DNA of 63,321 bases, filler included, from Reclinomonas americana ATCC 50394 (lineage: Eukaryota), in the NCBI GenBank assembly GCA_048213135.1. It is 15 parts of 14 records of this genome, joined end to end, with 100 filler letters (N's around TTAATTAATTAA, not from the genome) between each part and the next. Parts side by side here need not be neighbours in the genome. Positions count along the whole stretch, not along the records: positions 1 to 15,348 come from AFZH01016580.1; 14 more parts are not named here. The stretch is one strand, 5' to 3'. The translations under genes were made by a program, and so were the position numbers. Under the pieces are notes generated by a model that saw only the letters and a program-made list of their open reading frames with translations, was not told the origin of the DNA and did not search any database. Every line of letters starts with the position of its first letter. Positions within the stretch are counted from its first letter, which is position 1. Shown here one piece after another: positions 4,199 through 8,473 of this stretch.

Positions 4199-7100
4199 AT
4201 GTCGGTGAGTTGTATTGATTGCGTGGGGGGACGCTTGTTGTTCGCTTGCTTCTCCTTGTCTCCTCTCTCTCTCTCATCGCTTGTCACTCACTGTCCTTGT
4301 TTGCGCACAGTTCTCTGTGAATGTGAGCGCGGCGCATGATTTATCGCTGTCGGTGGTGGTGGAGGGCTTGTCGGCAATGTCCACTCTCGCTGACTTGCTG
4401 CGCGAGGCCACACGCTTGCTGCGTGAGAAGACTGGAGATGGAGAGATGGAGATTGTGGGGGTGGAGAAGCCAGCGCCGTATGACTTGGAAGACATGAGCG
4501 GAGCAAAGTTGAAATCACTTGGCATCAACTCATCCACTCAACTCGTCGTCCGTCTGATACTTGGCGTGGCGCTACAGCCGAGTGGAGGGAGTGGAAGGTG
4601 TGTGTTTTCGTGATTCATTTCTCTGTGCAAAACATGAATCTCACTCTTGTGTCTTCGCACAGCAACTCGGAGCGAGTGATTCGGTTTGTTTTGCTTGCCT
4701 CAGACTTCGTCGTCCTCTCGCGATACGAGTCTGTGCTGACTGTGTTTGTGTGCACGCACAGCATGATCAACTCGCAGCGCATCAACATGGCCTTTGAGGT
4801 GGTGGAGGAGGCCGTGCGTCTGCGATGTCAGCGTACACTGGCTCAGTTCAGTCGCGAGCATCCCGACTTTGATGTGCGGGCGTGGGTGCCGACATTCTCG
4901 CCTGCTGGTATGGATGTGGCGGCAGTGAAGGCGTGGCGAGCGAGGCATTCAGTGCCTGGCATTGGATTCGTCAAGCTGCCGAGAGAAGCATGGGCGCATG
5001 TGCATGATTGGCACGCTACTTTCGCCGCCAACTCGGCTGTTGATCCACCGTGCAGTGGTTTCGACATTGGCGATCTCGGCTCCATGTTCTCGTACGGGGC
5101 GTTTATTGAGGTGGACAGCAGTGACGGTCGGCGGCAAGTACACGAATTGCTTTTAGTTGTGGCTGAACGACTGGCAATTGAGCAAGCTGTGCAAGTGCGC
5201 AATGCGTTGGCACACCATCGAGACCAACCATTGTGGACGGATGCCACTGTGCAGCAGTACCTTGGCGACGGTGGTGTCTTCCTCTCCGTCCTCTCTCGAC
5301 TGCAGTTGACGGCTGATGAGCAAGCTCGATTCGCTGCTCGTATCTGCGAGGCGCGATACATTGATCTCACCATGAGCACATTCGAAGAGCGACTGCATCA
5401 ACTGGCTGTGCGTGAGCTGTCGTTCTACCAGCACGACGAAAGTGTGCGCAAGGACATGCAGATGTATGTCCCACTGCTGTGCTCTCGTGATCGTGACGTC
5501 CCGTCGAGCGACAAGATGACGGATCTGTTGACGGAGGTGGATGCTTTCCTCTCCGACACCAACGCCACTCAACGTGTGCTGGTGCTTTTCGGTAACAGTG
5601 GAGCTGGCAAGACCACCACCATGTCAGTGCTGGCTGAACGAGCATGGCGACAATGGCAGACAAGAGAGAGCAGACGAGTTCCTGTTCGCGTGCCACTTGG
5701 TGCTCTGTGCAATGCCGACGACCGATTGTTGGAGGAGGCATTAGAGCGATTGTCACCCGAGTTGGGATTGGAGTCGGATGTGCGACGGTTGAAGGAGGAA
5801 CCTCTGCTGTTGTTGCTTGACGGATACGACGAGTTGTATCGCGGTGTGAATCTGTTTGTCAAGAACCAGCTGGATGTGTGTCGCGATGTGAAGGTGATTG
5901 CCACCTGTCGAGGCGATTACGCACTGACGGCACTGGGTGGAGTGATGCAGTATCGACGCTACTTTGCACCGGTGGATGCACGAGGACAGTTGTGCATGCA
6001 GCAGTTGATGGAGCGACACATTGCGCCGTTCAACAAAGCGCAGATTGAGGAGTACTTTGAGCGAGTTGTGCGAGTGGGTGATGCTAATGACGACGGTGAG
6101 GTGCGATGGTCGACTACCGAGGAGTACATTCGCGCTCTGAACAGTGTGCATGGATTGGATGCGTTGGTGTCGAATCCGTTCCTGTTGGCGGTGGTGGCTC
6201 GTGTGTTGCCGCAGCTGGTGGCGAGTGGCATGCAGCGACCAACTCGACGCGATGTGTTTGACCGATTCATTCGACAGTGGATCGAGAGGGAGCAGGAGAG
6301 GCAGACGCGTCTCGGTGCAGAGCGGGTGCCGAGTGAGGAGACGTGTTTCGCGTTCTGTGAGGGATTGGCACGGTTGATGCATGAGAGGAATGTGGTGCGT
6401 GTTTCTGTGATGGAGAATCGGCCCGGTGGTGATGGTGAGGAGGATGACTTTGGCGGCGCTCCACTTGCCTTGCGACGAGTGGATGAGGGACCGTTCGACA
6501 AATTCCTCGGTCACAAGAACCAGCATGTGCGAGTGTGCTGTCCAATTGTGCGACGGTATGGGACGACGCAGTGGGGATTTGTGCATCTCTCGTTGCTGGA
6601 GCACTGTGTGGCACGGCATGTGTTTGCGTGGGAGACGTGGGGTGAGGAGAGGAGATTGACGATTGAAGATGTGCAGCAGCATGCGTTGGCAGTGCGACTG
6701 CTGAATGATCGACCATCGTTGGTGGAGCAGATGGCCGAGGTGGTGCGACGATCACCTCGATTGCAAGCGAGACTGTGGGAGGTGATTGAGTTGTCACGGG
6801 AGGTGGATGAGGAGCGAGTGGTGACGGCAGCAGCGAATGCGGCGACGGTGTTGTGTGTGGCGCAAGTGTCATTCAGTGGGCGAGATCTGTCGGGTGTGCG
6901 AGTTAGAGGTGCGGATCTGAGGGATGCGGTGATGCACAGGACGGTGTGGAGGGGTGCGGATTTGCGAGGGGTGAATCTGTGCATGGCGTATGCGAGGGAA
7001 GCGGATTTCCGAGGGGCGGATGTGACGGGTGTGAAGTGGCCGAGGAAGCCTTTGGTGGGGCACACTAAGGCTGTGACTTGTGTCGCAGTTACTCCTGATG

Positions 7101-8473
7101 GTCGGCACATTGTGAGTGGCAGTGACGACAAGACTGTAAGGGTGTGGTCACTGGCAAGTGGTGAAGAGGTGCGCCGACTGGAAGGCCACACGAGAGAGGT
7201 GCGTGCAGTGGCAGTGACTCCTGATGGCCAGCACATTGTGAGTGGCAGCCGTGACAGGACTGTACGGGTGTGGTCGGTGGCAAGTGGCGAGGAGGTACGC
7301 CGACTGGAAGGACACGCTGGACAGGTGAATTGTGTTGCCGTTACCCCTGATGGTCAGCACGTTGTAAGTGGCAGTGGGGACAACACTGTACGGGTGTGGT
7401 CGATGGCAAGTGGCGAGGAGGTGCGCCGACTGGAAGGCCACACGAGTGCAGTGTCTGCAGTGGCAGTGACACCCGATGAGCAGCACATTGTGAGTGGCGG
7501 TATTGACAAGACTGTACGGGTGTCGTCGGTAGCAAGTGGCGAGGAGGTGTGCCGGCTGGAGGGCCACACGAGTGAGGTGTATGCAGTGACTGTGACATCC
7601 GATGGCCAGCACCTTGTGAGTGGCGGCGAGGACAACACTGTACGGGTATGGTCGGTGGCAAGTGGCGAGGAGATGCGCCGACTGGAAGGCCATAGGGGAG
7701 CGGTGTTTGCAGTGGCAGTAACACCCGATGGCCAGTACATTGTGAGTGGCAGCGGGGACAAGACTGTACGGGTGTGGTCAGTGGAAAGTGGCGAGGCGGT
7801 TCGCCGACTTGTTGGCCACACTAATGTGGTGTGTGCAGTGGCCGTGCCACTCGATGGCCAACACATTGTGAGTGGCAGTGCTGACAAGACTGTACGGGTG
7901 TGGTCGATGGCAAGTGGCGAGGAAGTGCGACGGTTGGAGGGCCATACGGATGCGGTGCGTGCTGTTGCACTCACACCCGATGGTCAGTACGTTGTGAGTG
8001 GCAGTGAAGACAAGACTGTGCGGATATGGTCGATGGCAAGTGGTGAGGAGGTGCACCGACTGGAAGGCCACACGAGTGGAGTGTCTGCGTTGACTGTGAC
8101 ACCCGACGGTCAGTACGTCGTGAGTGGCAGTGACGACAAGACTGTGCGGATGTGGTCGATGGCAAGTGGCGCGGAGGTGCACCGACTGGAAGGCCACACG
8201 AGTGGAGTGTCTGCGTTGACTGTGACACCCGATGTTCAGCGTCTAGTGAGTTGCAGTAGTGACGGAACTGTACGAGTGTGGTCTATAGCGGGCGGCGAGG
8301 GCGTGCGCCGACTGCAAGGCCGCGCGGACGGGGTGTGTGCAGTGTCAGTGACATCCGATGGACAGCGTGTTCTTCCAAGCGGGGAGGACTCACCTCTTGC
8401 ACACCCCAATGGAGAGCTACTCCTGCGCATTCTCGGCTCCTTCCTGCCTGATTTCGCCGGCGTGATTTTGTGA
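4199..8473 (+). CDS. STAND/NLR-like protein copy 1: Ubl - HEPN-like - NACHT - pentapeptide repeats - ~10-11 WD40; exons 4199-4204, 4311-4597, 4663-4683, 4762-8473 (~1341 aa)
   Basis: All three introns are GT..AG with consistent phases. Walker A GNSGAGKTT (from 5591), Walker B LLLLDGYDEL, 'KVIATCRGDY', 'SNPFLL' and 'WGFVHLSLLEH' are NACHT motifs. RNALAH at 5198-5215. Pentapeptides 'GADLRDAVM..GADLRGVNL..ADFRGADV'. 126-bp WD40 units 'LEGHT..V..VAVTPDGQHIVSGS.D.TVRVW'. Confidence 0.9.
7056..8370 (+). repeat. Highly similar 126-bp WD40 coding tandem repeats (10 full + 1 degenerate)
   Basis: Recurrent 'cgactggaaggccacacg', 'cccgatggccagcacattgtgagtggcag' and 'gactgtacgggtgtggtc' at 126-bp spacing. 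Confidence 0.9.

Follow-up and report, generated by a model that had tools for sequence, protein, structure and literature searches.

A predicted NLR-like STAND gene in Reclinomonas americana with a candidate divergent HEPN-type module at its N-terminus

Gene layout and domain order

We analyzed a stretch of 63,321 nucleotides from the genome of Reclinomonas americana ATCC 50394 (GenBank assembly GCA_048213135.1; 15 parts of 14 records joined end to end), hereafter the window. It contains at least two diverged copies of a large gene with differing numbers of WD40 repeats, located on different pieces of the assembly. The features of the two copies are as follows.

Copy 1:
4200..4205, plus strand: ATG TCG, proposed as a coding start exon of 6 nt; the donor GTGAGT comes next
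4311..4597, plus strand: predicted exon 2, 287 nt, with AG/GT borders; its product P0002 (95 aa) is a Ubl-like candidate
4663..4683, plus strand: proposed 21-nt micro-exon, with AG and GT flanks in both copies
4762..8473, plus strand: long last exon, an open frame; P0001 (1236 aa) is read in codons from 4763
4763..5392, plus strand: orphan N-terminal module, aa 1-210, absent from all relatives found
4982..5302, plus strand: HEPN-like candidate core, aa 74-180, from low-confidence AlphaFold models and ESM Atlas neighbours
5198..5215, plus strand: RNALAH, an Rx4H motif in which N follows R; aa 146-151, read from the codons
5573..5917, plus strand: NACHT P-loop domain (PF05729), aa 271-385
5591-5617, plus strand: Walker A, GNSGAGKTT, read in P0001
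5804-5833, plus strand: Walker B, LLLLLDGYDE, read in P0001
6854..7039, plus strand: pentapeptide-repeat segment (PF00805), approximately aa 698-759
7058..8317, plus strand: ten 42-aa WD40 units (PF00400), plus a degenerate eleventh to about 8443

Copy 2:
31734..36602, plus strand: whole copy
31734..32032, plus strand: exon 2, 299 nt, counterpart of 4311..4597
32096..32116, plus strand: micro-exon, identical to that of copy 1 at 19 of 21 nt
32216..36602, plus strand: long exon (P0003), with about 14 WD40 units
32652-32669, plus strand: RNTLAH, counterpart of RNALAH

The NACHT, pentapeptide and WD40 assignments of an earlier, sequence-only reading of this DNA were borne out by Pfam. The NACHT domain scored 32.9 bits (E 6.8e-8; Pfam cut-off 26.7); its Walker A and B motifs are intact and align with those of relatives, and the NACHT module with its helical/winged-helix extension reaches approximately residue 690. 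PF00805 matched the following segment with 35.4 bits (cut-off 20.2), with weak matches to the NCBIfam pentapeptide families, and PF00400 matched with 401.5 bits in 10 stretches. At the DNA level, TRF reported a period of 126 bp at 7085-8366 (10.2 copies, 79% matches). The WD40 repeats differ mostly at four positions, and variation at few WD40 positions is a pattern known from fungal NLR sensors.

The order N-terminal module, NACHT, pentapeptide, WD40 is thus established from the sequence, and it includes the tripartite order of NLR-like proteins: an N-terminal slot, a NOD-type NTPase and a repeat sensor. Together with an N-terminal module that is distinct and evolves under purifying selection (see below), these features support the earlier prediction that the gene encodes an NLR-like STAND protein, a candidate immune receptor.

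BLASTP alignments of P0001 to its relatives begin only after the N-terminal module: at residue 211 for P0009 (32% identity, 1028 columns, E 2e-129) and at residue 235 for P0006 (29% identity, 985 columns). The relatives P0005 and P0006 have kinase Pfam families at their N-termini. Since the alignments start at residues 211-235 and the N-termini of the relatives differ, residues 1-210 look like a variable effector slot.

The N-terminal module

The sequence-only reading had proposed a HEPN RNase domain upstream of NACHT, on the basis of segments that are all found in the translation of P0001 (FDIGDLGSMF, AIEQAVQVRNALAHH and VQQYLGDGGVFLSVL) and of the Rx4H motif, which lies in both copies exactly where it had been placed. 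The published HEPN motif is Rx4-6H with N, D or H, a polar residue, following R, and copy 1 reads R146-N-A-L-A-H151, copy 2 RNTLAH; a polar N after R agrees with the description in section 6 of PMC3710099. The occurrences expected by chance per 260 aa are 0.013-0.05 for RNx3H, 0.12-0.13 for R[NDH]x3H and 0.87-1.1 for plain Rx4H, figures subject to a selection effect, as the gene was originally chosen because of its RNALAH motif. The module contains a second plain Rx4H, REAWAH, at residue 74. That the motif is kept in copy 2 carries little weight, because the two copies share 87% identity in this domain.

Two AlphaFold2 runs on two-sequence alignments, for residues 1-240 and 60-200, yielded pLDDT values of 41.2 and 39.7, too low to judge the fold of the module. 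In these low-confidence models, DSSP assigned helices to residues 74-90, 103-109, 120-152 and 160-179 of the candidate core; in both, RNALAH ends the long helix (120-151 or 120-152), which is followed by a loop and then by a kinked helix, the 160-179 stretch lying after the loop. The end of a helix before a loop is also where section 7 of PMC3710099 locates the HEPN motif.

Among the 30 nearest clusters of the module in the ESM Atlas, a Pfam family is assigned to 22, and without exception it is a HEPN family: HEPN_DZIP3 in nine, HEPN_Swt1 in eight, DUF4559 in four, and DZIP3 plus DUF4559 in one. The rows listed had scores of 0.91-0.94, with 173-193 of 256 features in common with the module. 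The recognition value of the module, 2099, is below the mark of 2300 set by the tool, which rates the evidence as weak; of the ten best neighbours with a family, it counts only three that match the family or clan of the best one and reads this as "probably wrong", and the HEPN families are found on only 11-38% of the members of these clusters.

Searches of family libraries did not assign the module to any HEPN family: neither Pfam at E up to 10 with six cuts of the region (including HEPN_DZIP3, PF18738, cut-off 27 bits), nor NCBIfam at E up to 10, nor PADLOC at E up to 1. FAD_binding_1 (E 0.05-0.18), which appeared among the matches to these cuts, was considered noise. One HEPN_Toprim_N row (E 0.018, 15.4 bits, cut-off 25), at residues 478-564, was dismissed as HEPN evidence for the module, since it lies inside the NACHT helical region and outside the N-terminal module. 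No HEPN was found among PDB sequences with a two-copy profile at E up to 10; matches to a P450 and to Pol epsilon, both with E>1, were not accepted.

Homology searches gave the same picture. Phmmer identified no true homologue of the module among 1.84 billion representative proteins; its sole match, P0004, was rejected as spurious, being the translation of a tandem repeat that was hit in eight stretches. Among proteins of 679-2163 aa, no homologue was found for region 1-260 at E<=0.001 (2704 candidates) or for region 95-235 at E<=10 (567 candidates). The two-copy alignment gave 32 pattern matches in genome contigs and 108 in metagenome contigs, none of which was confirmed.

For a direct profile comparison, also recommended in the sequence-only reading, we used 31 HEPN_Swt1 domains, a family matched in 48 of 401 Planctomycetota genomes; HEPN_DZIP3 and DUF4559 were absent from the 401 and 101 bacterial genomes searched. 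Hhalign paired the motif helix with RNRWAHQ of HEPN_Swt1 (score 15.5-15.9, P 0.14 and 0.076), but 17 of 200 column shuffles reached the same score and the reversed query scored 15.3. With hmmsearch --max, the HEPN_Swt1 set scored the motif at -0.4 bits, lower than random open frames taken from the window. The HEPN_Swt1 profile scores of the module are background, and overall the alignment-based and structure-based tests of HEPN were negative or uninformative.

Between the two copies, dN/dS is 0.13 for residues 1-95 and likewise for residues 96-185, compared to 0.14 for NACHT (dS 0.38-0.52 in these estimates), and the N-terminal module evolves under purifying selection.

The HEPN proposal thus stands in part. 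The rare RNxxxH, its position at a predicted helix end and the language-model neighbours agree with it, while the family libraries, the homologue searches and the HEPN_Swt1 profiles do not; resting on a short motif, a predicted helix end and a weak neighbour list, the HEPN identity is not established. We consider the chances evenly balanced that the module is a divergent HEPN domain.

The main competitor, which we rate as a serious possibility although somewhat short of even, is that the N-terminal 210 residues form an unrelated, lineage-specific helical domain, in which RNALAH would be fortuitous or structural and no RNA would be cleaved; such a domain might serve as an adaptor, as a module for oligomerisation or of a death-fold-like type, or as an effector of another kind. 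Orphan N-termini are the norm in this protein family, those of the relatives being unrelated, and this explanation is consistent with the absence of HEPN support in every profile, sequence or structure test, with the recognition value under the mark and with the chance rate of the looser R[NDH]x3H pattern. Against it, the exact RNx3H form would arise less often by chance (0.013-0.047 times in 260 aa), the motif is found at a helix end before a loop, as published for HEPN, and every family-bearing ESM neighbour is a HEPN family.

The upstream exons

The exon borders and phases proposed in the sequence-only reading (exons of 6, 287 and 21 nt joined to the long open frame) are all present in the sequence, the splicing itself being predicted. 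The ATG at 4200 is the first of its open frame, the AG at 4760-4761 opens into the long frame, and the stop codon is at 8471-8473. The three upstream exons add up to 314 nt (6+287+21), so base 4762 completes a codon and the phases are consistent. As its length is divisible by three, the micro-exon can be skipped with the frame kept, and its inclusion is not deducible from the frame.

The comparison of the two copies supports the predicted splice model. In a segment-wise alignment, the indels in exon 2 are of 12, 3 and 3 nt only, whereas those in the introns are of 2 nt in one and of 7, 3, 10, 2 and 1 nt in the other; copy 2 thus combines a 12-nt in-frame exon insertion with a 2-nt intron indel. 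The model is favoured because the exon 2 indels are multiples of three and the intron indels are not, and because the GT-AG intron borders are kept in both copies. Exon 1 could not be compared, since its counterpart in copy 2 falls in an N gap of the assembly.

Exon 2 also has the properties of coding sequence: its positional GC (0.62/0.43/0.64) is like that of the main exon, codon-usage log-odds are +3.0 in the proposed frame versus -29 and -50 in the other frames, dN/dS between the copies is 0.39, and its ESM recognition value (2800) is one that real proteins typically have. Its product had been proposed to be a ubiquitin-like domain. P0002 had no Pfam match; its named ESM Atlas neighbours are ubiquitin/Rad60-SLD, with the exception of one OTCace_N row, at 0.87-0.89 with 115-135 features in common, which the tool rates as a lead only. 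We accordingly treat a ubiquitin-like domain in exon 2 only as a lead.

It is unlikely, in our estimation, that the gene model is wrong and translation starts instead at ATG 4763 (MINSQ...), with the "Ubl" exon and the micro-exon untranslated or belonging to something else. The long exon does open with that ATG, the micro-exon leaves the frame unaffected, exon 1 is hidden in copy 2 by the N gap and exon 2 lacks a Pfam match; however, the distribution of indels between exon 2 and introns, the GT-AG borders kept in both copies, the choice of the exon 2 frame by positional GC and codon usage, and the exon's dN/dS and ESM recognition all speak against this start.

Interpretation

For the gene product, four things are inferred: its HEPN fold, an activity as RNase, a role in immunity and the way in which it is activated. 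In the explanation that we find best, the lineage-specific helical module of about 210 residues would most probably be an RNase of HEPN type, metal-independent and very divergent; a small Ubl-like exon may lie ahead of it. The pentapeptide beta-helix would act as a spacer between the NACHT NTPase and the WD40 sensor array. By analogy with NLRs, RNase L and Ire1, a ligand that binds to the WD40 face would release NACHT-driven oligomerisation; the N-terminal modules would then meet, and paired R146/N147/H151 sites could cleave RNA. We give about equal weight to the positions for and against an NLR-like STAND gene at 4200-8473 equipped with a divergent, proximity-activated HEPN RNase module.

A HEPN fold in something other than an immune RNase, either as a silent RNA-binding or dimerisation domain or within a non-immune signalling protein (an Apaf-1-like or NWD1-like housekeeping STAND), seems very improbable to us: inactive HEPN domains acting as binding modules are reported in section 6 of PMC3710099, no defence-related neighbours were found and, of 17 further large open frames scanned, Pfam matched two, but R, N and H are all present in the module, the WD40 variation centres on four positions, and the diverged copies (at least two) have unequal repeat numbers.

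If the module is a HEPN RNase, the gene would represent a "sensor, NACHT switch, RNase" design in an apparently non-animal eukaryote, would bear on how frequently NLRs are assembled by effector swapping and on NLR origins, and would offer a compact, testable model of proximity-activated HEPN RNases. More tentatively, and with our judgement leaning against it, the module may found a HEPN family beyond current profiles, an RNase warhead with a Ubl cap in a poorly sampled, flagellated non-animal eukaryote; were this true, the logic of RNase L, RNA cleavage switched on by oligomerisation, would extend on a scaffold of NACHT to a non-animal eukaryote. If the module is not HEPN, it would be another orphan effector domain on a known scaffold, and a candidate for the discovery of new effectors.

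Comparison with known systems

Fungal NLRs of the HET-E/D/R type combine NACHT with internally conserved WD40 repeats that have few variable positions and a repeat number that depends on the paralogue. Their N-terminal domain is HET or another one, and a pentapeptide segment is lacking. Fungal NACHT-WD40 NLRs are the subject of PMC4986451 and PMC13449251.

Among the close relatives are P0005-P0011, proteins with NACHT, pentapeptide and WD40 from bacteria, Mortierellaceae fungi and metagenomes. Their homology to P0001 begins at the pre-NACHT helix and continues through NACHT, the AAANAxT motif and the pentapeptide repeats to the WD40 repeats, with 29-32% identity over about 1000 columns. This part is thus common to bacteria and (early-diverging) fungi. 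The N-termini are unlike that of P0001 (kinase families on P0005 and P0006, and further unrelated N-termini), and the present gene differs in having spliceosomal introns and highly self-similar WD40 units.

In Planctomycetota, HEPN_Swt1 + DUF499 proteins likewise have an N-terminal Rx4H HEPN on a large P-loop AAA+ ATPase, an arrangement listed in Table 1 of PMC3710099 as the Ava_2192 type (N-terminal HEPN_Swt1 + DUF499). They differ in the ATPase class and in lacking WD40, and the profile comparison to the present module is at background.

In RNase L and Ire1, which have KEN-type HEPN domains, a ligand-driven dimer or oligomer juxtaposes the HEPN sites for metal-independent cleavage, as described in section 6 of PMC3710099. 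The activation logic that we propose would be alike; their scaffold is kinase-like instead of NACHT, and their sensors are ankyrin or lumenal instead of WD40. The likeness proposed between KEN and the present module is one of logic.

The animal HEPN-NACHT proteins are close in layout as well. According to PMC3710099, PMC8260672 and PMC9646362, cnidarians and oysters have HEPN at the N-terminus of NACHT, other tails known from the NACHT proteins of these animals being WD40, TPR or LRR, and N-terminal HEPN is common across animal NLR-like families; these families are multi-copy and typically have N after the motif R, as here. The DZIP3/hRUL138-like HEPN of cnidarians and bivalves (PMC3710099, Table 1) precedes NACHT as does the putative Rx4H module described here. 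The present module differs in matching neither PF18738 nor another HEPN model and in having no detectable homologues, and the protein has an extra pentapeptide segment between NACHT and WD40 and a possible Ubl-like exon upstream, in what is apparently a non-animal-like gene set. The suggestion that the five-domain architecture had not been described was therefore overstated, given HEPN-NACHT in cnidarians and oysters and NACHT-pentapeptide-WD40 in fungi, bacteria and metagenomes; layouts of this kind are already known in animals and bacteria.

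Gene model and the two copies

The NLR-like gene at 4200-8473 (copy 1) has a second copy at 31734-36602 (copy 2), with its exon 2 at 31734-32032 and its long exon at 32216-36602. The two copies are on different assembly pieces, and their side-by-side placement need not hold in the genome. Residues are numbered along the long exon of copy 1, from 4763 (P0001, 1236 aa). The following features were read in copy 1:

4200-4205, plus strand: proposed start exon, ATGTCG, followed by GTGAGT
4311-4597, plus strand: proposed exon 2, 287 nt, with AG and GT at its borders
4663-4683, plus strand: micro-exon candidate, 21 nt, with AG and GT at its borders
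AG at 4760-4761 to stop codon at 8471-8473, plus strand: long open frame, starting just after the AG
5198-5215, plus strand: RNALAH motif, aa 146-151 of the long exon

The exon coordinates of the sequence-only reading were exact, its phases add up in the sequence, and the peptides it quoted are found in the translation. Exon 2 (287 nt in copy 1, 299 nt in copy 2) shows indels of 12, 3 and 3 nt between the copies. The introns differ by one 2-nt indel (intron 2) and by indels of 7, 3, 10, 2 and 1 nt (intron 3). GT-AG is retained at all borders visible in both copies. As far as sequence can tell, this comparison supports the proposed splice model. Positional GC in the proposed frame is 0.62/0.43/0.64 for exon 2 vs 0.67/0.42/0.62 for the main exon, the codon-usage log-odds of exon 2 are +3.0 (copy 1) and +6.1 (copy 2) against -29 to -50 in the other two frames, and its dN/dS between copies is 0.39. 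In composition, codon usage and dN/dS, exon 2 thus behaves like coding sequence in this frame. The micro-exon, at 21 nt, can be in or out without a change of frame, and the exon 1 position of copy 2 falls within an assembly gap.

Read-through was also inspected. In copy 2 (32033-32215), no stop interrupts the exon-2 frame through the two proposed introns until a TGA at 32178-32180; this TGA directly adjoins the long open frame and shares its frame. The corresponding read-through in copy 1 ends 14 nt into intron 2.

Conserved domains and the WD40 array

The calls of NACHT, pentapeptide repeats and WD40 were borne out, since all three exceed their Pfam cut-offs in copy 1 (NACHT, 32.9 bits vs 26.7; pentapeptide repeats, 35.4 vs 20.2; WD40, 401.5 bits). 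The NACHT motifs are intact (Walker A GNSGAGKTT, Walker B LLLLLDGYDE). We conclude that this is a real, NLR-like gene, under selection and present in at least two copies.

The WD40 region consists of 10.2 tandem copies of a 126-bp unit at 79% identity. Among 20 units from both copies, variation is mostly at positions 4, 5, 7 and 23 of the 42 residues. Regular units number 10 in copy 1 (7058-8317) vs about 14 in copy 2 (approximately 34503-36250); units are closely alike within arrays and their number varies between copies. This pattern resembles the behaviour of fungal NLR sensor repeats. The C-terminal tails (8330-8473 and 36340-36602) have a short RILG..PDF stretch in common; copy 2 then has about 70 further residues, an acidic tail absent from copy 1. 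For copy 1, truncation or one more exon is possible.

A variable N-terminal head

Of 8000 candidates scored in a search with aa 255-700, nine were relatives at E<=0.001. P0005 and P0006 (34% and 30% identity) are metagenome proteins that carry kinase Pfam families; the others are P0007-P0010, of which one is labelled as a Glomeribacter MAG, two fungal proteins from Mortierellaceae and a further, more distant match. In whole-protein BLASTP, the alignment to P0009 starts at aa 211 (32% over 1028 columns, E 2e-129) and that to P0006 at aa 235; both span NACHT, the pentapeptide segment and WD40. Because the alignments start only there, aa 1-210 (the head) would constitute a variable N-terminal slot, which here appears to hold a module with no counterpart found elsewhere. 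Word-indexed protein searches and contig scans gave no homolog of the head, and phmmer against 1.84 billion representative proteins gave a single match, P0004. We rejected P0004 as a homolog: it is a 1167-aa translation of a tandem repeat of about 100 residues, matched in eight stretches, an instance of a false positive from summed scores. Between copies, dN/dS is 0.13 for the head vs 0.14 for NACHT, indicating purifying selection as strong on the head as on NACHT.

Is the head a HEPN domain?

The head had been read as a HEPN ribonuclease domain from a motif with a helical FD..L.. segment ahead of it; the motif's positions proved exact in both copies, RNALAH in copy 1 and RNTLAH at 32652-32669 in copy 2. 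The chance expectation of RNx3H is 0.013-0.047 per 260 residues, and HEPN motifs typically have N after R (PMC3710099, section 6). AlphaFold2, run twice on the head with two-sequence alignments, gave low-confidence models (pLDDT 41.2 and 39.7); in both, a 30-residue helix ends in the motif, after which come a loop and a kinked helix, and PMC3710099 puts the HEPN motif at such a helix-end location. Of the 30 ESM Atlas clusters nearest to the head, 22 have a Pfam family, in every case HEPN (DZIP3 in nine, Swt1 in eight, DUF4559 in four, DZIP3 plus DUF4559 in one). The rows shown score 0.91-0.94 with 173-193 of 256 features in common; however, recognition of the head (2099) is under the tool's own mark, only 3 of 10 matches share the family or clan of the best one by the tool's own count, and the HEPN families occur on 11-38% of cluster members. 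The string FDIGDL ... RNALAH ... LWTDATVQQYL presumably resembles the DZIP3 consensus.

Against this reading, no HEPN family was found for the head in Pfam (six cuts, E up to 10), NCBIfam or PADLOC, and nothing relevant matched among PDB sequences. Profiles were compared using 31 HEPN_Swt1 domains from Planctomycetota, in which the family had matches in 48 of 401 genomes. hhalign laid aa 134-153 on the RNRWAHQ helix with a score of 15.5-15.9, a level reached by 17 of 200 column shuffles and approached by the reversed query (15.3); unfiltered hmmsearch of HEPN_Swt1 against the head gave -0.4 bits. The rare motif at a helix end and the ESM neighbours thus speak for HEPN, while family, profile and homolog searches do not; we regard a HEPN domain here as plausible and unproven, with the case evenly balanced.

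The Ubl candidate in exon 2

The exon 2 product, proposed to be ubiquitin-like, has no match in Pfam, and 24 of its 30 ESM neighbours are without a common family; except for one OTCace_N row, the named rows belong to ubiquitin/Rad60-SLD and score 0.87-0.89. A beta-grasp (Ubl) fold is a plausible candidate, to be taken as a lead only.

Window composition and host

The window is DNA of a eukaryote and contains 14 blocks of N44, 12 bases and N44, starting at 15349 (to 15448), 23731, 25995, 27246, 29162, 30563, 37782, 40826, 46050, 49068, 53214, 56348, 58515 and 61861. At the centre of the one block read stands TTAATTAATTAA, which is a six-frame-stop joiner of contigs. Given these blocks, the window consists of assembly pieces strung together, possibly in arbitrary order. 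Two open frames match Meckelin/TMEM67, a ciliary transition-zone protein:

43261-44556, plus strand: Meckelin/TMEM67, Pfam E 5e-13
44880-46049, plus strand: Meckelin/TMEM67, Pfam E 7e-26

The host therefore probably has cilia or flagella, judging from this gene. Two low-GC blocks (38742-40719 and 53823-55010; 0.35-0.38), with long N gaps and several overlapping open frames on both strands, are probably repeat or low-complexity sequence.

Comparison with known systems

In animals, DZIP3-type HEPN is fused to NACHT, CARD, DEATH and LRR and has expanded in Nematostella, oyster and Capsaspora; CXorf38-type HEPN fused to NACHT, N-terminal HEPN on bacterial STAND NTPases, and Ubl fusions of sacsin and KEN proteins are also catalogued (PMC3710099). 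Across nine cnidarians, DZIP3-like HEPN is the most frequent non-LRR partner of NACHT, with 17-83 HEPN-NACHT proteins per species in anthozoans (PMC8260672). Oyster has more than 50 NACHT proteins with N-terminal HEPN, some oyster NACHT proteins have WD40 or TPR tails, and Rx4H is the most frequent motif form (PMC9646362). In the preprint of Kibby et al., HEPN is one of the abbreviated domains of the architecture figure, and the sensors named for bacterial NACHT proteins include pentapeptide and beta-propeller repeats. In Planctomycetota, we found HEPN_Swt1 proteins in two size classes, about 250 and about 1100 aa; both proteins scanned from the long class have HEPN on the N-terminal side of a DUF499 AAA+ ATPase.

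Since HEPN-NACHT, WD40-tailed NACHT and pentapeptide sensors are documented in animals or bacteria, the design is already known, and the suggestion of an undescribed architecture would hold at most for the exact proposed order Ubl-HEPN-NACHT-pentapeptide-WD40, for which we found no paper, though supplementary tables could hold it. What is particular here is the head of undetectable ancestry, the possible Ubl cap and the host.
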